From the NCBI GenBank assembly GCA_964410905.1, contig CAYPIR010000004.1, positions 9,878-73,877 of the forward strand: 64,000 nt of DNA, written 5' to 3'. The notes under the pieces were generated by a model. The model did no database searches. It was not told the origin of the DNA and saw nothing but the letters and a program-made list of their open reading frames with translations. How positions within the stretch are numbered: position 1 is the stretch's first letter; each line of letters opens with the position of its first letter. Below, piece after piece: positions 7,966-52,593 of the stretch. The stretch comes from an uncultured bacterium (GTDB taxonomy: Bacteria; Omnitrophota; Omnitrophia; Omnitrophales; Aquincolibacteriaceae). Position numbers and translations under genes: made by a program.

Positions 7966-10900
7966 TTACGCAGATTTGGCAATTACGAAATCGCTGGCAA
8001 GTTTTTCCGCCAGAGATTTAAAAAGCGTTCCCGCCAAATTCAGGAACCTATTAATCATTTTTTCATTCACAACAATCGGTTTCTCGCGCAGCGCTTCTGT
8101 CAACTCTTCCGCCAACGCGAGTTCGTCTGAGCTGATCATCGCTTTAAGCGAAATGCCGTTTTTGGCAAGAAATTTAACCGCCTCTGTCGCGTCAGAAAAA
8201 ACTTCCACTCTATTTTGAAGATTTTCCGCCGCTATGATTTTTTTAATACTTTCAATTTGCGAACGGTCTTTTTCCAAAATCACAAAACTGCTCCCCGCGT
8301 AAATCGTCTTAGCAAGCGCCAGCAAACCCTTTCCTTTAGCGAGCGCCAAATCCGCGCCCAAAATAAACGAGTCGTTTCCATTAACTTCAAGCCCAAGCGC
8401 TCCAACGGCATTTTGAATAGAAGTTTTAGCCCCTTTGGAAGAAATGCTATTGCTAGCCTCTGTATCAGCGGCCAAACGTTCTGGATTAGCAAGAGCGGAA
8501 GCGAGTCCATCTGTTACCTCTGCCGTTACAAAACGGCTCGAGCTTTCGCTTCCGCCGGCATTTCCGTCCGCTGTTTTATTTTCATTTAGAAAATAAGAAG
8601 ACGGAATGTTTTCTTCATTTTTTCGCGCGCGAACGTCAGCGCGGTAAACTATTGCTTCCACAATAGAGTTTCCGCTTGAACCAAACGCGTCTCTTTTTCT
8701 AACCGTCCAATCTATAGCATTCTCATTTCCGACTCTGGAATACCCTTCATCTCTTCCAAGACGAAGCCTCCTGTCAAATTCCGCCATTGCCTTGTTAAAA
8801 ATTTCCAAAATTTTTTCACTTTCCTTTTCGCTGGGCAGAAGAGTTGTTCCCGCTTGAAATTCTTCGGCATCAACTCCATTTTTCAAATTTTCTTTTTCAA
8901 GCCTAGCCTCTATTGAATATTTCAGATAATGAGGCAGCCGCACAGCCTCAAGCCATTGCGTTCTATCACGGCCGTTCGCGCCTTCACGATTAACCGGAAC
9001 GCCTACCGTCCAACCATCGCCATCTTTTGAATGATAAAAACTATCTCCAGAACGAATGCCGTAAATTCGGCCTCGCAAAGCGTTCACTACAACATAAGAC
9101 GCAGTCGAAGAATTTTGAATGGGAGATTTTGACAAATCAAGAACCTTAAACCACGCCTTACCGTCTTGAACGTTATACGGCTCTGATGAGAAATGAATCA
9201 CATTAAAAAGATTTCTTTCTTTAAATTTTCTCGACATCGCAAATCCGCTTGTCGGATCGGTTTTGCGAATAAGCGCTTTGCCGTCCTTAAAAAATCCTTT
9301 ATATTTTTCGGACTCTATTGTCTTTTTAAGCTGCGAGTAATATCCAAAATCCCAGTTCTTCATTTCATCAAGCAAAGACGGTTCCAAAAATGTTACAAAA
9401 CTCATCACCGCCCGCATCCCTCGCGCGAATGTTCCAACCGCAACATTTCTAGGAAGACCAGAAATTTCTTGCAACAATTCCTTCAAAGCGCCCGGCATTT
9501 CTTGAGCCTTTTGGATTTCGCGGGCGATAAAGTCAGCGTTATTTTGCTTTCCGGCAAAAAGATGTCCCTGCGAAAGATCTAATACTGCTAACAAAAACGG
9601 GTGCCCGACTCGTCCAAGTTCTTTTCTCTCTTTTGTATCAATCCTTGTAATTTTCAGCGCCTGAAATCCTACGTCCTTGGGAATGCCGACATCTAAACCT
9701 CTTTGAGTAATATCGCCGACAGAATACGAGCCGTATTTCGCGCTCAAGCCGGCGTCTTCTATACGAACCGTGCCCACGCCGGGCAACAATCCTTTCCAAA
9801 CGGGTCCGCCCTGTATTCTTCCCCAGACTTTAGCTGCATCACTTTTCTTTCCTTGAGGATAACCAAACCAGCCCCTGTCGAAAACAAGAAGATATACCGG
9901 ACCTTTTTCATAACGGAAAGGATACGCGGTTATCAAGTCCGTGGATGTTACAAACTCTTCATCGCCTGAAATCTTTTGGTTTTGCCGTTTTATAGCTTTT
10001 TCTAAATAGATTTTGTAGCCCGCATTTTTAAATATGGCGGGACTCCACGCTCGCTCATTTGCCGATTCTTGCAAATATTGTCCAAAAACATCTAATACGA
10101 AGGTGTCCAAAAGAGTAAGCGTTTCTTCATCTTTTATCTGTTCGCTTACAACACGGCTTATATCGTTCCATATATCCGCATAATCTTCATCGTAAACAGT
10201 TAGAAAAATCGCCCGTTTTTCTTCAACAGCGCTTACCCCGTCTATTTTCTTAAAAATCCCTTTTCTGAATGCCGCAAAACCCTCAACGGCGTTTCTCTTT
10301 ATTTTTTGGAACTCAGTTTTTTCTGTCTCGTCAAAAATATCTTCAAAGCTCGCGAGCTGCGTTGTATAAAAAACAGCTTTTTGCCAATTCAAAGTTTCCG
10401 CGGTGGCCGCTACGCGCTTAAAAATACTTTTCACTTCTATTCTTCGCGCGATTTCCCGCAACAATCTGCTAGCCTCTGGGATTCGGGTCAGCAGCACATC
10501 CATATTGTCCGTGCTAAGAGAACCCGCCAATTTTTCGATCTCTGTTTTTGCGACAACTTCAATCAATGAGTGCTCATTTTCAAACGGGCTTCTTTTAGTT
10601 TTCACCATTTCATCCGCCCAACCGTTTAAATCTGAATACCCAATGCCTTTAGCCGAGAATTCACTGGCGAGCCTGTCTAATTCTTCATATGTTGCGGCTA
10701 CTATTCTTTGTTCAGATCTGTTATTTTCATCACTTCGCACTTCATCGCGAAGACTTCCCCAAGCCACTTCGTTTTCTTTTACAACTCGCATCCAGAGCAA
10801 GTCTTCTACGCCCTCCACATGCAATTGCTTAGAAAGCGAGTCCACCATAATAAACGGCTGTCTTCCTTTAGTATCATCTATGATAATCGTATAAACCGTT

Positions 10901-13161
10901 CCTGATGCTCTAATTTTAAATTCGACAAGTGTTCCACGCAGTTTCTCTTCTGAAACATTTTTCTTTTCCAAAAACTTTACGATTGTCCCTCTCTCATCTT
11001 TTAAATCATCCTCAGAAAATGAAAAAATAGGCTGTGTTTGCCGCCCGCGATTTTCGCTTCTACTGACAAGATTTTTGGGATACATAAAAAACGAATCGCC
11101 CGCGCCCTTTAAAATCCATTCTTTTTCATCTTTTAAATTCGTAGCCTCTAACAGTTTAGTTAAAATAACTCGACCGGCGGAGTCAGGCATTAACAAATAA
11201 GCGTTTCCATTTTTTTTGTCTAAGTATTTTTGCCGTTCTTCTAAATTTTCCGGCAAATCTCGGGCAATGTTTCTATCCCAAATCTTCTGAGTGAAAACGC
11301 GCACTCGTTTGTTTTTTTCTTCATAAAGCGCCACCAACGCATCGGTGCTTTCAGATCCAATCGCCTTGCGAAATTCCGCAGGAATAGTTATCCGATTTTT
11401 TCCATCAAGATTAAGAAGGAATGTTCCTAAAAATTTACTTTCATAATCAACATCTATTAATTTCCTTAAAACATATTCAACAAGCTGTGGATTAATTTGC
11501 CCAACATTATCAACTATTTGTTTCACGAGAAGAGCGTAATCTCTTCGCCAATTTTCCGGATTCTGCGCTTGAGAGAATCTAATATCGCTCCGAACAGTCG
11601 GAGCTATATATGAACCGGAAACGCTTTTTCGTCCTAAAAGCGCCGTTAGATAATTTTTTTTATCTTGGAATGAAACTTCGCTTATTTTTGGGGTAATGCC
11701 GATATATGAAGCATAGTTTTTTTGAAACGCTTTTTGGAATCCTTCGGTATGAAATCCGCCCGTAATTAAAATCGTTTTTGTTTCGCCAAGTTCTTTTAAG
11801 CGGCTAAAAACGTTTTCCGCCATAAAATTTTCACGCTCAATCGCTCCCTCGTAAAACTTAAGAGCGTTTGAAAAAGTCTCTTTAACGCTCTGAAACTCCG
11901 CTTCGCGCGTAAGAGACAAATCAATTTGGGCGAGCTTAACTATCGATAATTTCTCTTCCCTCAACAAGTCATATTCCCGTCTGGACATTTCAAGCCGCAA
12001 CGCTTTTTTTATGAGTGAATATTCGTTTAAATTTTGAACAAGATTTTTTTCATCATTTGTTTTAATTAATTTTTCTTCGATTTCTTTAATAAGCCGCTCT
12101 ATTTCCGTTTGCAAGGTCTCGATATCAATTTCGGAAGTCAAAATCATTTTTTGTATAAAAACTTTAAGATTCGGATATGCGTCAAAAGAAAAATCTGCGG
12201 GGCTTGCGTCTACCAGACGTTCAAAAATAAACCTTGTTTCGTAAATTGGAAGTTCATTTCGGGAAGCGAGATCAAAGACTTTCTCAATATCAGCCACGAC
12301 TTTAGGATTTTCAAAACCTTCGTTTTTAATGTTTAGTCGAATATCATTTAAAAATTGTTCTTTCTCTTCCTCGAGTTTTTGGGAGGTGGGATTTTTTTCC
12401 GATTTAATTTTGAAATACCGAGTAAGAGCAGGATAATTTATTTGCTCGCTAATGTCCGCTAGATTTTTTTCTAGTTCCGATGAGTATGTCTTCTTTAATC
12501 TCTCAACCCAATCAGTGAGGGTTATTTTCCCGTCTTCGTAAGCAGTTTTCTCCGTTAAAAATTCACGAAGATTTTTATTCAGTTTTTCCCCCGCGGACTT
12601 TTGCCATTTTATATAAATTTTATTCAAAAACGTTTCCACTATTTTACGCTTAGAAAAAACTTCACGATAAAGCTCAAGATTCTTTTTATACTCTTCGGGA
12701 TTTTCAACTCCCCAGCCTTGAACAGCGTCTGGATGCTTCATCAGAAACGCTTCCGCCCCTGTCATTTCTCCCGCGCTCATCAATGCTTTATTAATTTTAT
12801 TTTGGACAGCTTCGTCTTCGGAGAATACGAAAAAATCGGGGTCAAGCTGAAAGCCCGCGCCTTCCATCAAAACCAGATTAATCCCGTAAGATTGGTATAG
12901 ATGCTCCAAAATAGCTTGTATGTTTTTTTGCGCGTCATAATTAGAATGCGCCTCTTGAATATGAACAATAAGCGGCGCGTCATTTTTCGCAAAAACAACT
13001 TTATCAATACTGCCAAGACCAAGCGGAATTTCCAAGCCAAAAGCCTTTGAAGAAGCCCCCGCTGTTACAAGCGTCGGCGCGTTCGCGAAAATATTTGTCG
13101 CAAAAAAAGTGGTTAAAACGCTAATTGATATGATTTTTTTAATTTGATTTTTAAAAGACAT
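7966..13161 (-). CDS. Giant (1731 aa) predicted secreted protein of unknown function. N-terminal Sec signal peptide, TraB/GumN-like N-terminal region, internal MraZ-like module, about 1000 aa unassigned C-terminal region
   Basis: Single uninterrupted ORF with an AAGAGGA RBS before the ATG. N-terminus MSFKNQIKKIISISVLTTFFATNIFANA|PT looks like a signal peptide with an AXA cleavage site. Residues about 577-697 align motif-for-motif with MraZ (see findings). Confidence 0.7.
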   Translation of the reverse strand: MSFKNQIKKIISISVLTTFFATNIFANAPTLVTAGASSKAFGLEIPLGLGSIDKVVFAKNDAPLIVHIQEAHSNYDAQKNIQAILEHLYQSYGINLVLMEGAGFQLDPDFFVFSEDEAVQNKINKALMSAGEMTGAEAFLMKHPDAVQGWGVENPEEYKKNLELYREVFSKRKIVETFLNKIYIKWQKSAGEKLNKNLREFLTEKTAYEDGKITLTDWVERLKKTYSSELEKNLADISEQINYPALTRYFKIKSEKNPTSQKLEEEKEQFLNDIRLNIKNEGFENPKVVADIEKVFDLASRNELPIYETRFIFERLVDASPADFSFDAYPNLKVFIQKMILTSEIDIETLQTEIERLIKEIEEKLIKTNDEKNLVQNLNEYSLIKKALRLEMSRREYDLLREEKLSIVKLAQIDLSLTREAEFQSVKETFSNALKFYEGAIERENFMAENVFSRLKELGETKTILITGGFHTEGFQKAFQKNYASYIGITPKISEVSFQDKKNYLTALLGRKSVSGSYIAPTVRSDIRFSQAQNPENWRRDYALLVKQIVDNVGQINPQLVEYVLRKLIDVDYESKFLGTFLLNLDGKNRITIPAEFRKAIGSESTDALVALYEEKNKRVRVFTQKIWDRNIARDLPENLEERQKYLDKKNGNAYLLMPDSAGRVILTKLLEATNLKDEKEWILKGAGDSFFMYPKNLVSRSENRGRQTQPIFSFSEDDLKDERGTIVKFLEKKNVSEEKLRGTLVEFKIRASGTVYTIIIDDTKGRQPFIMVDSLSKQLHVEGVEDLLWMRVVKENEVAWGSLRDEVRSDENNRSEQRIVAATYEELDRLASEFSAKGIGYSDLNGWADEMVKTKRSPFENEHSLIEVVAKTEIEKLAGSLSTDNMDVLLTRIPEASRLLREIARRIEVKSIFKRVAATAETLNWQKAVFYTTQLASFEDIFDETEKTEFQKIKRNAVEGFAAFRKGIFKKIDGVSAVEEKRAIFLTVYDEDYADIWNDISRVVSEQIKDEETLTLLDTFVLDVFGQYLQESANERAWSPAIFKNAGYKIYLEKAIKRQNQKISGDEEFVTSTDLITAYPFRYEKGPVYLLVFDRGWFGYPQGKKSDAAKVWGRIQGGPVWKGLLPGVGTVRIEDAGLSAKYGSYSVGDITQRGLDVGIPKDVGFQALKITRIDTKERKELGRVGHPFLLAVLDLSQGHLFAGKQNNADFIAREIQKAQEMPGALKELLQEISGLPRNVAVGTFARGMRAVMSFVTFLEPSLLDEMKNWDFGYYSQLKKTIESEKYKGFFKDGKALIRKTDPTSGFAMSRKFKERNLFNVIHFSSEPYNVQDGKAWFKVLDLSKSPIQNSSTASYVVVNALRGRIYGIRSGDSFYHSKDGDGWTVGVPVNREGANGRDRTQWLEAVRLPHYLKYSIEARLEKENLKNGVDAEEFQAGTTLLPSEKESEKILEIFNKAMAEFDRRLRLGRDEGYSRVGNENAIDWTVRKRDAFGSSGNSIVEAIVYRADVRARKNEENIPSSYFLNENKTADGNAGGSESSSRFVTAEVTDGLASALANPERLAADTEASNSISSKGAKTSIQNAVGALGLEVNGNDSFILGADLALAKGKGLLALAKTIYAGSSFVILEKDRSQIESIKKIIAAENLQNRVEVFSDATEAVKFLAKNGISLKAMISSDELALAEELTEALREKPIVVNEKMINRFLNLAGTLFKSLAEKLASDFVIAKSA

Positions 13162-15230: not shown

Positions 15231-15575
15231 TTATGCAAAGGCAGGTCGGCTTAACACATTTGTCGAAGCGTATTTCAAACGAGATCGTTTGGGGCGAATA
15301 ACAATTTCAACATCGTTTCCCAATCGATTTAACATTTCAAAAAGATTGTCTAAAGAGAAAAGGTTTATTTTGCCGTTTAAAAGACAAGACACTTTAGGCT
15401 GTGAAATATTCAGAGTTTCCGCGATTTGTTTTTGTTTTAACCCTCGTTTTTTAATTATTTCGTTAATTTTCAACATCACTTCTGCGCGCGCGCGAATGCG
15501 TTCGGGCATATTTATTTTGATGTCAGAAAACACATCATTGCTTTCGTGTTGAATTTTAATTTTTTGAATCATCAT
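15231..15575 (-). CDS. HigA-type XRE-family antitoxin / HTH regulator
   Basis: 114 aa; HTH (LKQKQIAETLNISQPKVSCLLNG). Its ATG overlaps (ATGA) the stop of the upstream HigB-like reading frame. Confidence 0.65.
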   Translation of the reverse strand: MMIQKIKIQHESNDVFSDIKINMPERIRARAEVMLKINEIIKKRGLKQKQIAETLNISQPKVSCLLNGKINLFSLDNLFEMLNRLGNDVEIVIRPKRSRLKYASTNVLSRPAFA

Positions 15576-44697: not shown

Positions 44698-47600
44698 TAT
44701 GCTTTCTCCTTCGATGTTTCCGATGTCTCCGCGGATGTGTCATCTTTATCGCCGACAATATCCGGCAACACACCTGTAAGATCTTTTTCTATATCAATAT
44801 TGTGATGGGCCTTAAAACCTGTTCCGGCAGGTATCAAATGTCCCATAATTACATTTTCTTTTAGACCTTGTAAATAATCTCTTTTGCCCGCGGAAGACGC
44901 TTCGGTCAAAACACGGGTTGTCTCCTGAAAGCTTGCGGCAGAAATAAAACTGTCTGTTGTCAAAGACGCCTTTGTAATTCCAAGAAGGATCGGCGTCCCC
45001 TTCGCTGGCTCTTTGCCTTTTTTAATCATCTTTGCATTTTCTTCCGCAAATTTTAATTTCTCAACATGTGAACCAACAAGAAATTCCGTGTCTCCCGAAT
45101 CTTCGATCTTAACCTTACGCAGCATTTGCCGAACTATAGTTTCAATATGCTTATCGTTCAAACGGACACCTTGCAAGCGATAAACATCTTGCACTTCTTT
45201 AACAAGATATTCTTGCAAATCTCTTTCGCCTGAAACTCTCAATTTATCTTGCAATACGACAGGGCCATCTACTAGCTGATCTCCCGCTTTGACCTTATCG
45301 CCTCTGTAAACATTCAAATGTTTTCCATGCGAGATTTCGTATTCAGCTGCCATCCCAGACGCGCTCTTAACAATAATCTTTCTCTTTCCTTTGGCGATCT
45401 CTCCGATTTCAACAACGCCGTCAATTTCAGAAATAACCGTAGGGTTCTTAGGTTTACGAGCTTCAAAAAGTTCCGCGACGCGCGGCAAACCGCCTGTAAT
45501 ATCGCGAGTTTTTGCCGTTTTGCGCGGTGTCTTCGCAAGCAAAGTTCCACCCGTTATTTCTTGACCATCTTTCACAATTATATGCGCCCCTATTGGAATA
45601 GGATAGAAAGCAAGAGTTTCACCTTTTTCGCCCAAAAGAAGAACTTGAGGATGCATATCTTCCTTATGTTCGATAATGACGCGCTCGGTCATCCCCGTAG
45701 TCGAGTCAACTTCTTCGTTCATGGTCACGCCGTCTTCAACATCTTCATAGCGGACCTTGCCCGCGACTTCAGTTAAAATAGGAACAGTATATGGATCCCA
45801 CTTTACAAAGATTTCGCCTTTTTTAACAACATCGCCATCTTTGTAATAAATAATCGCGCCTGTTGGAATTGTATAACGTTCAAGTTCGCGGCCTGTCGTA
45901 TCGTGTATTGATAACTGCCCGTTACGATTAAGAACCACGATTTCGCCGGACTTAGTAACGACAGTTTTCAAACTATGATATTGCAGCGCTCCTTCGCTGC
46001 GCGTCCTGTAGTATGATTGCTCAATGACACGCGACGCTGTTCCGCCGATGTGGAATGTTCTCATCGTCAACTGCGTTCCAGGTTCACCAATTGACTGCGC
46101 GGCAATAATTCCAACCGCCGTCCCTTGCTCGACAAGTCGTCTTGTGGCAAGGTCTCGGCCATAGCATTTCGCGCAAACGCCTTTTTTTGATTCGCAGCAA
46201 AGAACCGAACGAACACGAATTTTTTCTATCCCCGCCTCTTCTATCTTCTTGACAGTTACTTCATCAATCAAATCTCCAGATTTAACGATAGTTTGGTCGG
46301 TAATAATATCAACAACATTGTTCAAAGCAACGCGCCCTAAAATTCTATCTGAAAGAGGAACTATGACTTCTTCTCCTTCATACACCGGTTCCATTACAAC
46401 GCCGTTCAAAGTTCCGCAATCTTCTTCATTAATAATCACATCTTGAGCGACGTCGACAAGACGGCGAGTCAGATAACCAGAGTCTGCTGTTTTTAAAGCT
46501 GTATCCGCCAATCCTTTACGCGCTCCGTGCGTAGAAATAAAATATTCAAGAACTGTCAAGCCTTCGCGGAAATTGGCGGTGATAGGATTCTCGATAATTT
46601 CGCCCGATGGTTTCGCCATTAAACCGCGCATACCTGCCAACTGACGAATCTGCTGCTTAGAACCGCGCGCACCAGAATCCGCCATCATAAAAATAGAGTT
46701 AAAAGAATCAAGAGCCTCGAACATAATGTCGGAAACTCTGTCTGTTGTGTGCGTCCAAATGTCTATTACTTTGTTATATCGTTCACCGTCCGTAATTACG
46801 CCTTGCTTGTATTGATTTTCTATCGATTTAACCTCTTTACGAGCTTCTGCCAAAATGGTTTCTTTTGCCGCTGGAATTTGTATATCATCAATTCCGATAG
46901 ACAAACCAGCCGCCGTTGCTTCCGCAAATCCAAGCGCTTTCAGCCGATCAAGAAGTCCCACGACTTCAGCGTGCCCAAAAGAGTTGTAACATTCAGCGAT
47001 AATTTTAGAAAGGCGACCCTTATTGACTATATCGTTGACATATCTAAATCCCTTCGGCAGAACTTCGTTAAAAAGGATGCGTCCCATAGTCGTGTCAACA
47101 ACGGAACCGTTCGCCAAGCGGACCTTACACTTCGCGTGTTTATGAATTTGTTTATCCTGAAAAGCCAAAATTGCTTCTTGAAAATCACTAAAAAACAATC
47201 CTTCTCCAAAATCTTTCTCGCGCATCTTGGTCAAATAATAAATACCAAGAACAATGTCTTGCGTTGGAGTCATAATAGGCTGACCGCTTGCCGGCGAAAA
47301 AATATTGTTGGCGGAAAGCATCAAAATACGCGCTTCCATTACGGCTTCCATAGAAAGAGGAACGTGCACTGCCATTTGGTCGCCGTCAAAGTCCGCATTA
47401 AAAGCCGTACAAACAAGCGGATGTATTCTAATTGCATGCCCTTCAATAAGTTTTGGCTCAAAAGCTTGTATACCAAGTCTGTGAAGAGTTGGCGCACGGT
47501 TCAGCATAACAGGGTGCTCTTTAATAACTTCTTCTAAAATATCCCAAACTTCCGGCTTAACACGCTCAACCATCTTTTTAGCTGAACGAATTGTGTGAAC

Positions 47601-48746
47601 ATGCCCGCGTTCTTTTAGTTTACGAATAATGAAAGGCTCAAAAAGCTCTAAAGCCATTTTCTTAGGGAGACCGCATTGATGAAGCTGAAGTTCTGGACCA
47701 ATAACAATTACTGAACGGCCGGAATAGTCAACACGTTTTCCGAGTAAGTTCTGACGAAAACGTCCTTGTTTGCCTTTGAGCATATCGCTCAAAGATTTCA
47801 GGGGACGATTTCCAGAGCCAAGAACAGCGCGCCCATGCCTACCATTGTCAAAAAGCGCGTCAACCGCTTCTTGAAGCATTCTTTTTTCGTTGCGAATAAT
47901 CACATCGGGAGCTTTTAAATCTAAAAGTTTACGAAGCCGATTATTACGGTTAATCACGCGGCGATAAAGGTCATTCAAATCACTCGTGGCAAATCGTCCG
48001 CCGTCAAGGGCGACCAAAGGCCGCAAATCGGGCGGAATAACCGGAATAGTCCTTAAAATCATCCATTCAGGACGATTTCCAGATTTATAAAAAGCTTCAA
48101 CTATCTTTAAAATTTTAACCGCTCTAGCGCGCGCCTGTTTGGACTTCGCCGCTTTTAAAGCGCGATGCCATTTTTCTGTCATCTTTTTTAAGTCTAATTC
48201 CGTCAAAAGCGTTTGAATCGCCTCCGCGCCCATTTGCGCGATAAAATTTTCCGGGCCGTATTGTTCTTGAGCTTTCAAAAACTCTTCTTCCGTCAAAAGT
48301 TGGCGGGGCTTAAGAGGTGTTTGTTTAGGATCAAGAACAATGTATTCCTCGTAATATAAAACTTTTTCAAGAGCGCGAACGCTTAGATCAAGCAAGTTCC
48401 CGATTCGCGAAGGCATCGTTTTAAAAAACCAAATATGCGAAACCGGCGTTACGAGATCAATGTGTCCCATTCGTTCTCGGCGAACACGAGACTGTGTAAC
48501 TTCTACTCCGCAGCGATCACAAACCACGCCTTTGTGCTTAATGCGTTTATATTTACCGCACGCGCATTCATAATCTTTGCTTGGACCAAAAATCTTTTCG
48601 CAAAAAAGCCCATCTTTTTCCGGCTTTAATGTTCTATAGTTAATCGTCTCTGGTTTCTTAACTTCGCCGCGCGACCATTTTCTAATCGACTCTGGAGATG
48701 CGATGCGAATTGAAACGGAATCAAAAGTATTCACGCTATAGTTCAT
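44697..48746 (-). CDS. rpoC: DNA-directed RNA polymerase subunit beta'
   Basis: 1349 aa; zinc finger CxxC..CxxC at the N-terminus and the NADFDGD catalytic motif. Confidence 0.95.
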
Positions 48747-51700
48747 ACTTTGAATGTCTCCCTTGCTTCCTTCTGCTTATCTTCCGCAGATTTTTCATTG
48801 TTATTACCAAAAGCCGCTTTCGCGCTTCCGGAACGCTCCGGATCAATATCTAAACCTAATGCTTGCAATTCTTTTACAAGAACATTAAACGATTCCGGGG
48901 TCCCCGCGTGCAAAGCCGGTTCGCCTTTTACAATAGCCTCATACACACGAGTTCTTCCGACAACATCATCCGACTTTACAGTCAAAAGTTCTTGCAAAGT
49001 AAACGCTGCGCCATACGCCTCAAGCGCCCAAACTTCCATTTCGCCAAAACGCTGTCCGCCAAATTGCGCTTTTCCGCCAAGCGGCTGCTGAGTTACAAGC
49101 GAATAAGGACCTATCGAACGAGCATGAATTTTATCATCCGCCAAGTGATGCAGCTTCAACATATAAATATGTCCGACAGTCGTCTTTTCTTGAAACCTTT
49201 CGCCCGTGCGTCCATCGTAAAGATGCGTTTTACCATCAGGCGAAATCTTCGCTTCTTCCATAACTTTTCTAATTTCTTTTTCGGTGGCGCCGCTAAAAAC
49301 CGGCGTCTCAACATCGAAGCCCAATTTTCTTGCTGCCCAGCCAAGATGCGTTTCAAGAATTTGTCCAACATTCAGACGGGAAGGAACGCCGAGAGGATTT
49401 AAAATAATCTCCACGGGCGTGCCGTCTTCGAGAAACGGCATATCTTCTTCCGGCAGCACTTTAGCAACAACACCTTTATTGCCATGACGTCCCGCCATTT
49501 TGTCTCCAACGGAAATCTTCCGTTTGGAGCAAACATAAACCACCACTTTTTTAATGACGCCGGGAGGCAATTCATCTCCCTTTTTAACTCTGTCCATCTC
49601 ACGAGTTCTTTCGGCAACCAATTCATCAATTTCATCGCCCCAAACACGCGCGATTTTTTTGATGCTTTCTTCAACGTCCGGGTCATCATCCAAACGAAGA
49701 GAATCCCAATCACAATCTTCCAGTTTTTTGAGATCATTCTTAGAAATCACATGTCCGCTCTTTATGAGAATTTCGCCTAATTTATCATCAAGCAAATCCT
49801 CTGAGAGTTTCTTTCCCACAACCAAATCGGCGACTTTGTTTAAACGCTCTTTTTTAAGCAAATCAATACGGTCGTTATAGCGTTCTTTAATTTCGGTGAT
49901 TTCTTTATTTTCTTGCTTCTTCTCTTCTTTAGTTTTAGCGGCTGATTCTTTGCGCGCAAAAGATTTAACATCAACAACGACGCCTTCTACTCCGGGCGGA
50001 ACAGTTAACGATGCGTCTCGGACATCTCCCGCTTTTTCACCAAAAATCGCTCTTAAAAGTTTTTCTTCCGGAGAAAGTTCTATTTCGGATTTGGGAGTAA
50101 TTTTCCCGACAAGAATATCACCGGGCTTTACTTCCGCGCCAATGCGAATCACGCCTTCTTCATCAAGATTTTTTAACGTTTCTTCGCTAACATTGGGGAT
50201 ATCGCGAGTAATCTCTTCGTTCCCAAGCTTAGTATCACGAGCCTCAATGTCAAACTCTTCAATATGCAGCGATGTGTAGACATCTTCTTTACAAAGTTTC
50301 TCGCTAACAATAATAGCGTCTTCAAAGTTATATCCGCGCCATGGCATAAACGCGACGACCACATTTCGTCCAAGCGCAAGGTCTCCGCCATGAGTCGCTG
50401 CTCCGTCGGCAATAACATCCCCGCGTTTCACTTTATCGCCCACTTCCACAAGCGGCCGTTGATTGATACATGTTCCAGCGTTGGAGCGTTTAAATTTACG
50501 AAGCTTGTAAGAAAAATCATCTATCAAAATTTCTTCGGCAGAAACAGCTTTTACAGTTCCTCGGGATTTAGCGATTACGACAGCGCCTGAATCTTTTGCA
50601 ACATGCTTTTCCATTCCAGTACCAACGATAGGAGCTTCTGGGTTAAGCAAAGGAACGGCCTGGCGTTGCATGTTAGATCCCATCAACGCACGGTTTGCGT
50701 CATCATGCTCCAAAAAAGGTATCAACGCGGCAGCTACTGATACAAGCTGTCTCGGAGAAACATCCATGTAATCTATCTCTTCTGGTCTTTTTGTAGGAAA
50801 ATCTCCGCGAAATCTGCAAGAAATGGCTTCAGAAACAAAGCGTCCGTTTTTATCCAATTCCGCGTTCGCCTGAGCAACAACATATTTGTCCTCTTCATCC
50901 GCCGTCAAATAATCAATCTGCTCAGTAACTCGTCCTTTTACAACCTTGCGATAAGGACTTTCAAGAAACCCGCGTTCATTTACTCTGGCAAATGTGCTAA
51001 GCGAAGCGATAAGTCCAATGTTTGGACCTTCCGGCGTTTCAATAGGGCAAACTCTTCCGTAATGAGAAGAATGAACGTCTCTTACCTCAAAACCCGCGCG
51101 TTCGCGAGAAAGGCCGCCAGGTCCTAGAGCCGAAAGACGACGCTTATGCGTCAATTCCGCCAAAGGATTGGTTTGGTCCATAAATTGAGAAAGCTGGCTG
51201 CGTCCGAAGAAATCTTTAATTACCGCTGATATTAATTTAGGATTAATTAAATTATGAGGCATCGCGGCTTCTAAATCATAAATGGACATGCGCTCAACGC
51301 AAGAGCGTTTCATTCGCGAAAGCCCTACATGAAATTGATTTTGAAGCAGTTCACCAACTGAACGGACGCGGCGATTTCCCAAATGATCAATATCATCTAT
51401 CTTAACTTCGCCCGCGCGAAGCTTCAAAAGTCTTCCGATGACATCAACTACGTCTCCGGGCTTTAAAGTGGTACTAGAAATATCCGATCCGGTTGTTCCC
51501 TTTCCAAGTTTTTTGTTGAGCATATAACGCCCAACGCGTCCCAAATCGTATCGTTGTGGATCAAAAAAAAGTTTGTGAATAAGGTCTTTAGAGCTCGCCT
51601 CAGTCGGAGGATCTCCGGGTCTAACCTTTCGATAAATGGCAATTTGCGCTTCTCTTGTATCTCTATATGGGTCTTTGGCAAGAGTGGTTACGAGAGCCTT

Positions 51701-52537
51701 ATCATCTTCAGAAACAAGAACCATGGAAAAGGATGAAACGCCAGCAGCCACAAACTGCTCAAGAATATCTTGCGTCAACTGCGTAGCGGCAGAAGCTAAA
51801 AGCTCTTTGCTTTCCGGATGGAAAACATCTTCCGCTAAGAACTTATCTTCGCAGTTTTTTATTTTCGATTGATTAAACGCGCTAATTTTTTCTATAGGAT
51901 AAAGTTGCTCACAAATTTCATAAGCGGAAGAATATCCTAACGCGCGAAGAAGTGTTGTCGCTAAAATTTTACGGCGGCGGTCAATGTAAGCATAAAGAAC
52001 ATCGTTAGGATCCGCTTCAAATTCAAGCCACGCGCCGCGGTAAGGAATAATTTTAACGCTATAAATTTTCTTACCGCTTGTGTGTATGCTTTCCTCACAA
52101 GAAATTCCGGGAGAACGATGCAATTGACTGACAATTACCCTCTCTGCCCCGTTAATAATAAATGTCCCGGTTTCCGTCATAAGCGGAAGCTCTCCGATAT
52201 AAACTTCCTGCTCTTTGGCGAGACCTTTTCTGACAAGGCGCAGTTTCACTTTAAGAGGCGCAGCATATGTCATACCTCTTTTTTGACATTCCGGAATAGA
52301 ATACTTGGGTTTCCCAAGAGAATATCCTTGATATTCAAGACGGCAGGTTCCGTCGAAGCTTTCAATAGGGAAGCAATCAGAAAACGCAGCATGTAAACCG
52401 CGACTTTTGCGGCGGCGGTCAGTACATCCCTCTTGCAAAAACTCATCATACGAATTCTTTTGAATCTCCACTAAATTGGGAATTTCTTTCGCATCCTGAA
52501 TTTTTGTATAGCTTTTTCTATTGATCAAAGATTTCAT
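48743..52537 (-). CDS. rpoB: DNA-directed RNA polymerase subunit beta
   Basis: 1264 aa; canonical beta-subunit conserved regions; ATGA overlap with rpoC. Confidence 0.95.
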
Positions 52538-52593
52538 TAGGAATTGTCCTCCTTAAGGACAGCGTTAAATATTATTTTTACGCTTGCCAGATG

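Follow-up and report, generated by a model that had tools for sequence, protein, structure and literature searches.

Why would a bacterium carry a DNA-binding regulator of the MraZ family inside a giant protein that begins with a putative export signal? The question is raised by a 64,000-nucleotide stretch of contig CAYPIR010000004.1 (assembly GCA_964410905.1, positions 9,878 to 73,877; hereafter, the window), which comes from an uncultured Omnitrophota bacterium and contains a giant open reading frame (ORF) with an internal MraZ-like segment. Few bacterial regulators are as conserved as MraZ, which in our searches was almost always a small stand-alone protein encoded at the head of the division and cell wall cluster. 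Here, we show that the internal module keeps both DxxxR motifs and the three base-contacting residues of MraZ, and that it is an in-frame cassette of a modular giant protein. The setting is unexpected, in that the fold is present without its oligomerization tail, with its DNA-reading residues kept, behind an apparent export signal. The unit of interest is the whole modular protein together with the linker motif found at its module borders, more than the MraZ module alone.

An MraZ-fold module within a giant ORF

The giant ORF occupies positions 7966 to 13161 of the minus strand and runs for 5,196 nucleotides (nt) from ATG to stop, with zero internal stops in the ORF listing. Its product of 1,731 amino acids (aa) is identical to a protein on the NCBI record (P0001; labels beginning with P or L are our own). 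The first-pass annotation of this DNA had noticed an MraZ-like peptide but named no strand; the peptide is confirmed, and it lies on the minus strand, at positions 11071 to 11433 (residues 577 to 697 of the giant ORF). The plus-strand translation of 11070 to 11435 is stop-riddled nonsense. That the segment is internal to a 1,731-aa protein is borne out, since the ORF is continuous, with neither a stop nor a frameshift between the segment and its flanks.

The similarity to MraZ is not compositional, and the segment is a genuine MraZ-fold module. The Pfam MraZ model PF02381, which had been proposed as a check, scores 47.7 bits on residues 554 to 724, in two stretches and above the gathering cut-off of 23, and 40 bits on the whole 1,731-aa protein. 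Five NCBIfam MraZ models match end to end on residues 575 to 708 with 22 to 41 bits, compared to equivalog cut-offs of 98 to 257. Being above the Pfam threshold but far under the equivalog cut-offs, the module belongs to the MraZ family as a domain without being an orthodox orthologue of MraZ. A profile of stand-alone MraZ (66 proteins, 168 positions) gives 111 bits, with positions 11 to 145 of 168 aligned to residues 581 to 714, and the module is its sole match in a six-frame translation of the window; this profile is not fully independent because it was built from matches to the giant-ORF MraZ query. Among 1.84 billion representative proteins searched with phmmer, 74 matched at E ≤ 1e-3, and 67 of these are ordinary MraZ proteins of 128 to 206 aa with 22 to 44% identity. 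A word-indexed homology search with the MraZ segment alone gave zero matches, and one with the alignment of fused modules gave six ordinary MraZ proteins only, so that it yielded no survey of fusions.

The match to both halves of MraZ, originally read motif for motif, is upheld by a 39-sequence alignment in which both DxxxR motifs occupy invariant or nearly invariant columns. An AlphaFold2 model of residues 560 to 721 has a mean predicted local distance difference test (pLDDT) score of 86.8, with a core at about 95. The top 16 Foldseek matches of this model in the PDB are all MraZ chains (9qlg, 9sz7, 9r4j, and 1n0e), with a probability of 1.00 and target-normalized template modeling (TM) scores of 0.71 to 0.78. 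PF04014 (MazE_antitoxin) and TIGR01439 also match the module, weakly and below threshold.

Recent structures of Mycoplasma genitalium MraZ bound to DNA (2026; PMC12957436) show which parts of the protein matter. Lys13, Arg15, and Arg86 make base-specific contacts with GTG(T/G) boxes, while the ring interface is formed by the C-terminal helices alpha5 and alpha6 with alpha2-alpha3 and the N terminus (PMC12957436). Oligomerization enhances DNA affinity, and a tail-deleted F36R/F52R variant, which is a monomer, retains specific DNA binding at a reduced affinity (PMC12957436). In our alignments, the three contact residues correspond to K588, R590, and R664 of the giant ORF (roles from PMC12957436). 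The module had been called complete; it has both halves and both DxxxR motifs but is without the C-terminal tail, and a Lys (Lys576, codon AAA) stands at the Met1 position. From the last barrel strand (DSFFMY) to the RSENR sequence that follows, there are six residues in the query and one to three in close relatives, compared to a median tail of 26 residues after the last strand in 35 stand-alone MraZ proteins. The absence of an in-frame ATG, GTG, or TTG near Lys576 makes separate translation of the module unlikely.

A family of modular giant proteins in the Omnitrophota

Is this fusion a one-off? It is not: beyond the one protein described in the first-pass annotation, the module recurs at other positions in relatives. 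Thirty other proteins of 1,000 to 3,000 aa match the first ∼560 residues at 22 to 41% identity. A scan of genomes (one per species), using a pattern from a five-sequence N-terminal alignment, found 74 loci, all from Omnitrophota or unnamed metagenome-assembled genomes, often with two or three paralogues per genome. The closest of these is 43% identical to the query, whose own locus was not among the matches. Many of the family ORFs overrun the 10 kb that were fetched and are therefore longer than 3,900 aa. A scan of metagenomes gave 80 further loci, in part on the same contigs, and a metagenome scan with MraZ-module patterns gave zero confirmed relatives. The N-domain was not found in a scan of viral contigs, so there is no sign of phage origin. 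Among the loci found here, the family is confined to the Omnitrophota. Its members share a plan: a Sec-signal-like N terminus and a conserved N-domain are followed by shuffled modules and, in a subfamily that includes the query, by a conserved C-terminal domain.

The shuffled modules of the relatives are very diverse. Their Pfam content includes phosphoenolpyruvate-utilizing domains, UDP-glucose dehydrogenase, methyltransferases, a metallo-beta-lactamase-fold hydrolase, sigma-70 region 4, HATPase_c, FBPase II, M23 peptidase, NDK, and a receiver domain. L002 (4536-16253, plus strand) has a subtilase (Peptidase_S8) module at residues 1348 to 1525, a possible in-cis processing protease. One member appears interrupted: the P0009 gene (L075, 1455-8792, plus strand) starts at the equivalent of query residue 317, and a 358-aa ORF (309-1385) ends ∼70 nt upstream. 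The N-domain of L075 has probably been split by a frameshift, a stop, or a sequencing error.

MraZ is one of the recurring cassettes. Modules were found in P0009 (residues 291 to 415), P0033, P0047, L004 (two copies), L005 (from residue 1254), L027 (from 1548), and L078 (from 649), at positions ranging from ∼290 to 1550. The relatives' cassettes begin 3 to 5 residues past a copy of the linker motif described below, at the position of the native MraZ N terminus (e.g., RSEVR-GQG-IFTGSY, RSEVR-AAGP-FLGSF, and RSEVR-FLSTF), and they end just ahead of another copy. Identity to the query module is 26 to 35% for three aligned relatives. Even so, the query and five other modules of the family retain all of D11, K13, R15, D82, and R86 (MraZ numbering); R15 and R86 are kept in all eight compared modules, and the single exceptions elsewhere are K13Q in P0047 and D82G in L027.

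We also came across a second kind of MraZ-bearing protein, represented by P0032 (1,481 aa), P0034 (632 aa), P0037 (347 aa), and P0059 (611 aa), with one to six modules behind an N-terminal signal or transmembrane segment. P0037 is annotated as Omnitrophota, and in P0032 the modules are accompanied by Fic and protein-kinase-like domains. Degeneration of the DxxxR positions is frequent among the tandem members (P0032, P0034, and P0037, with two to six modules), while the single-module P0059 keeps all five residues.

A linker motif at module borders

What marks the borders between modules? In relatives, the borders carry RSE[VMLI]R, with the general form R-x-[ED]-x-R. This linker motif occurs 67 times in 37 proteins, compared to 0.87 expected from shuffles. 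In the genome loci, family ORFs contain 282 occurrences in 185,526 aa (15.2 per 10,000 aa), compared to 1.06 per 10,000 aa in the remaining ORFs of these loci; there, the residual occurrences are in other giant ORFs. In the metagenome loci, the frequency is 9.8 per 10,000 aa in ORFs of at least 1,000 aa and 0.33 in ORFs of 150 to 700 aa. The motif is about 100-fold enriched. Domains that can be placed by Pfam (NDK, alanine dehydrogenase, and S8 subtilase) fall within the segments between motifs. The flanks of the motif are unconserved, although small residues tend to precede it and acidic residues to follow. A literature search for the motif strings returned unrelated matches only.

The motif is selected as a peptide. 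As many as 248 different 15-mers underlie the 282 sites, and they use all synonymous codons, with only a modest bias to CGY and TCN codons, so that it is the peptide on which selection acts. On the same evidence, we rejected a DNA-level origin of the motif, such as a recombination or cassette site. Members without RSExR repeat a variant of their own, e.g., RPE[SA][RK] 16 times in L017 and LSD[SAT]R 11 times in L040. In genome JBMONI, the paralogues L055 and L071 carry RAExR 14 and 16 times, and in genome nzgw330 the paralogues L034 and L073 both carry RAE. Such a concerted, genome-specific change at many sites would be expected if the motif were recognized by a factor that evolves along with it, as happens at the cleavage sites of viral polyproteins. 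Ser-dependent chemistry (phosphorylation or an N-O shift) was rejected as a general mechanism, since whole genomes carry Ala or Pro instead.

The query itself has five R[SAD][ED]xR sites (Table 1), compared to 0.17 expected, and none of 5,000 shuffles reached five. The first follows a stretch with pLDDT below 50 (residues 510 to 520), and RSExR is found at the equivalent place in L060 (at 514) and L002 (at 528). At the position aligned to the last, relatives have RAEVR, RSELR, or RSEVR. Some family members adjoin giant ORFs that themselves carry three to six RSExR: L038 (2-9748), L050 (12076-21669), L058 (12582-21581), and L063 (10415-16549), all on the plus strand. Some of these motif-bearing neighbors may continue the adjoining family gene beyond a frame break, and the linker motif may extend beyond N-domain proteins.

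The N terminus and the N-domain

The query begins with a positive n-region (K4, K8, and K9) and a hydrophobic stretch, IISISVLTTFFATNIF, followed by the small-residue sites ANA and AGA. The signal-peptide call was made by eye and with simple hydropathy and is heuristic. The same layout, in which positive charge precedes the hydrophobic stretch and the charge beyond it is neutral or negative, is seen in 24 of 31 family N termini, the query included. The hydrophobic segment (residues 19 to 28; 13077-13104, minus strand) is also conserved in sequence, as FFxTNxxxP, with F19, T22, and N23 invariant in close relatives. Ordinary Sec signals are not usually conserved in this way, and a dedicated step of recognition or sorting may be involved.

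The N-domain has an alpha/beta core similar in fold to the Tiki/TraB/ChaN/erythromycin-esterase (Ere) type, split by a helical insert of ∼300 residues. Across 26 members, H72, E100, G101, R443, G468, G469, and H471 are invariant. Four of these, H72, E100, R443, and H471, presumably match the His/Glu/Arg/His pattern of the Tiki/TraB/ChaN/Ere superfamily, which contains proteases.

How might the giant protein work?

We tentatively favor a processed, exported polyprotein, to which we give somewhat less than an even chance. In this explanation, the R-x-E-x-R sites are protease sites, and MraZ is a DNA binder that acts outside the producer's cytoplasm. The giant protein would be exported, and its R-x-E-x-R sites would be recognized by a co-evolving protease, which could be the N-domain itself or a trans-acting enzyme. 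Modules would then be released, or at least hinged, at these sites. Since it has no ring-forming tail, MraZ would be a monomeric or low-order DNA-binding cradle on GTG-type boxes and not the cell's own dodecameric or octameric dcw (division and cell wall) repressor. Its location behind a signal peptide would favor a DNA target outside the cytoplasm of the producing cell, whether in a host, in prey, or extracellular, over the cell's own dcw promoter.

It is tempting to go further and propose a previously unrecognized polyprotein system in host-dependent Omnitrophota, in which exported giant precursors are cut at the R-x-E-x-R sites into many modules of housekeeping type and the released, tail-less MraZ enters a host or prey cell and blocks its division at the GTG-box promoter of dcw. 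Excess MraZ is toxic to Escherichia coli. Still, we regard this extended version as a long shot.

Several observations weigh against a processed polyprotein. Cleavage at the motif is predicted from sequence, and the motif could have another purpose. The query's own motifs are degenerate (RSENR, RDEVR, RSEQR, and RADVR), and the site upstream of its MraZ module has been lost and now reads DYESK, so the query MraZ may stay attached on its N-terminal side. Export is also questionable, as a Pro follows the first AxA site of the putative signal peptide, which was called by eye and simple hydropathy, and as many cargo modules in relatives are NAD- or ATP-dependent cytoplasmic enzymes, which would be odd in an exported protein. 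The connection of the N-domain to a protease-containing superfamily is one of fold similarity only, with Foldseek E values of 0.1 to 0.7; the TraB, ChaN, and Ere Pfam families did not match the N-domain even at E ≤ 10, and an N-domain profile run against PDB sequences gave only noise. That superfamily also includes esterases and haem binders, and the catalytic-type residues of the N-domain are invariant even in distant members in which no linker motif was detected. Finally, an MraZ-type operator array, i.e., three or more GTG[GT] boxes, was not found in the window.

The alternative that survives best is an uncleaved surface or periplasmic scaffold, which we consider possible but doubtful. Here, the MraZ fold would be a protein or ligand adaptor, and R-x-E-x-R would be a hinge or docking motif. 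Swapped-hairpin domains of the AbrB/MazE type can act as adaptors, and the second kind of MraZ-bearing protein fits well, because the largely degenerate DxxxR motifs of its two to six tandem MraZ-like modules (P0032, P0034, and P0037), which stand behind a signal or transmembrane segment, show that the fold serves a purpose there other than canonical DNA binding. The missing motif ahead of the query's MraZ module and the predicted nature of cleavage are accommodated by a scaffold as well. However, the base contacts are almost always kept in the query's family, although the aligned close relatives are only 26 to 35% identical to the query, which argues for retained DNA binding. In addition, the genome-wide, concerted change of the motif calls for a specific reader, and the motif is located in unconserved, low-confidence linkers; both speak against a scaffold.

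A membrane-tethered cytoplasmic regulator, in which the N-terminal helix is an anchor and MraZ binds the cell's own chromosome, possibly replacing or supplementing a canonical MraZ at the dcw promoter, is in our estimate unlikely. It would explain the intact DNA-contact residues and the cytoplasmic types of cargo in relatives (UDP-glucose dehydrogenase, NDK, receiver domain, and sigma-70 region 4), and Nielsen and Lui read long proteins with transmembrane helices only as membrane anchored, with a cytoplasmic bulk (10.64898/2026.06.07.730766). However, in 24 of 31 N termini, the change from positive charge ahead of the hydrophobic stretch to neutral or negative charge behind it argues for an N-in/C-out orientation and thus for export. 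To our knowledge, Tiki-, ChaN-, and TraB-type folds all act outside the cytoplasm or as effectors, which we also count against a tethered regulator. Neither the missing oligomerization tail, given that oligomerization enhances DNA affinity (PMC12957436), nor the lack of operator-like repeats in the window fits a regulator of this kind.

We see next to no chance that the giant ORF is an artifact, such as a chimera of the assembly, a pseudogene in decay, or mraZ joined to its neighbors by an accidental in-frame read-through. In favor of an artifact, the contig was assembled from a metagenome, the linker motifs of the query are degenerate, and P0009 is parted from its N-terminal portion by a frame break. 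Against it, the query is open for 5,196 nt without a stop, the N-domain/MraZ/.../C-domain layout is found in independent assemblies of different origin (P0047 from JGI; P0009 and P0033 from NCBI; L004, L005, L027, and L078), the invariant residues are kept in all domains, and the MraZ segment has a guanine-plus-cytosine content of 38%, close to the 41% of the gene and the 42% of the window.

Other modules and the genomic neighborhood

Beyond MraZ, the query contains two further modules, X1 and X2 (Table 1), that found no match in Pfam, PDB, PADLOC, or PHROGs and are, by sequence comparison, uncharacterized domain families specific to these giant proteins. The domain E values of X2 in relatives are 1e-27 to 1e-36, except for a much weaker, partial match in L001 (1.4e-5). 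As X1 and X2 both recur at other positions, every recognizable piece of the giant protein is a movable cassette. A weak likeness of residues 1332 to 1388 to fucose-binding lectins (PDB, E of 0.1 to 1) was judged insignificant. The C-terminal domain of ∼220 aa ends in A[RK]SA and is always at the extreme C terminus, in the query as in P0002, P0008, P0009, P0047, L004, L006, L011, and L027. The linker motif stands just before it, and in Pfam it has a weak, sub-threshold HAD-like match only. Because it is found only at the terminus and its last residues are conserved, it may serve in sorting or anchoring. With the whole giant protein as query, PADLOC and PHROGs gave zero matches, so it is not recognizable as a defense or phage protein.

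Table 1. Features of the giant ORF, from N to C terminus, with positions in the window
Feature	Residues	Positions	Strand	Basis or remark
Sec-signal-like N terminus	1-35	13057-13161	minus	Sequence; same layout in relatives
Family N-domain	∼40-570	11452-13044	minus	Alpha/beta core plus helical insert
R524-S-D-I-R528, end of N-domain core	524-528	11578-11592	minus	Regular-expression scan; after low-confidence loop
MraZ module, two SpoVT/AbrB-type halves forming one cradle	577-700	11062-11433	minus	Pfam, NCBIfam, profile, model, fold search
First DxxxR, D586 G K588 N R590	586-590	11392-11406	minus	Sequence, alignments
Second DxxxR, D660 S A G R664	660-664	11170-11184	minus	Sequence, alignments
R701-S-E-N-R705, closes MraZ module	701-705	11047-11061	minus	Low-confidence stretch, pLDDT ∼58
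Module X1	706-800	10762-11046	minus	blastp, phmmer; positioned elsewhere in P0009, P0033, P0005, L001, L013
R805-D-E-V-R809 and R815-S-E-Q-R819, close X1	805-819	10705-10749	minus	Sequence, regular-expression scan
Module X2	∼1050-1397	8971-10014	minus	phmmer; positioned elsewhere in L009, L013, L004, L003, L027, L001
R1507-A-D-V-R1511, degenerate, before C-terminal domain	1507-1511	8629-8643	minus	Regular-expression scan
C-terminal domain, ends ...AKSA	1512-1731	7969-8628	minus	Profile
Stop codon		7966-7968	minus	

The reported absence of mraW and ftsL neighbors holds: no dcw genes adjoin the giant ORF, and the RsmH signature motif is absent from the entire window. Downstream lie dprA, an RDD protein, topA, a xerC/D-type recombinase, kdtA, and lpxK, and upstream are genes for an SRPBCC protein, exonuclease III (xth), an ACT protein, and a helix-turn-helix (HTH) protein. 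A small HTH_37/HTH_3 protein of 114 aa (15231-15575, minus strand), three genes upstream of the giant ORF, is of a type common among HigA-like antitoxins. Farther away, two adjacent large ORFs (44700-48776 and 48746-52552, both minus strand; 1,359 and 1,269 aa) have sizes typical of rpoC and rpoB.

Significance and relation to known systems

What is new here is an MraZ domain in a new architecture, within a recently described class of Omnitrophota long proteins. The domain probably also has a new role. Most of the importance probably lies in the linker motif, which opens the cleavage hypothesis to direct test: a motif that is specific to each genome and brackets whole domains predicts exact fragment boundaries, which could be tested by mass spectrometry. 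It would also allow giant proteins to be divided rationally for structure prediction and expression.

In Omnitrophota long proteins, many housekeeping Pfam domains are tiled along one chain, and 94% have a signal peptide or transmembrane helices (10.64898/2026.06.07.730766). West-Roberts et al. (2023) proposed that long proteins are cleaved, at cleavage points that were unknown (10.1101/2023.11.21.568195). Term searches of the texts of Nielsen and Lui (2026) and West-Roberts et al. (2023) turned up no MraZ, TraB, or erythromycin esterase, nor the word "linker." Our family resembles these long multi-enzyme proteins in that the relatives come from the same phylum, carry unrelated housekeeping-type domains in each chain, have a signal-like N terminus, and in some cases exceed 3,900 aa. 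The query is unlike them in size, with only 1,731 aa, below the 10,000-aa cut. MARTX toxins and the gingipain/HagA polyproteins offer an analogy only, with processing of the giant protein itself being a prediction, and Pfam found no cysteine-protease (CPD) domain, RTX repeats, or gingipain domains in it. With the Tiki/TraB/ChaN/Ere superfamily, the N-domain shares the core fold, but not a sequence-profile match or an unbroken core.

The MraZ module shares the beta-barrel cradle and the DxxxR signature with the swapped-hairpin domains of AbrB, MazE, and SpoVT. In those proteins the cradle is built from two chains, while the module, like MraZ, has both halves in one. It is unlike canonical MraZ in lying inside a signal-bearing protein of 1,731 aa, in having neither a start codon of its own nor the ring-forming C-terminal tail of ∼26 aa, and in its location away from the head of a dcw cluster, with no rsmH nearby in the window. 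Like canonical MraZ (PF02381; E. coli and Mycoplasma; 1n0e, 9qlg, and 9sz7), it forms a single-chain, two-half cradle with both DxxxR motifs, its N-terminal FxGxF start is conserved, and its fold matches over the whole length.

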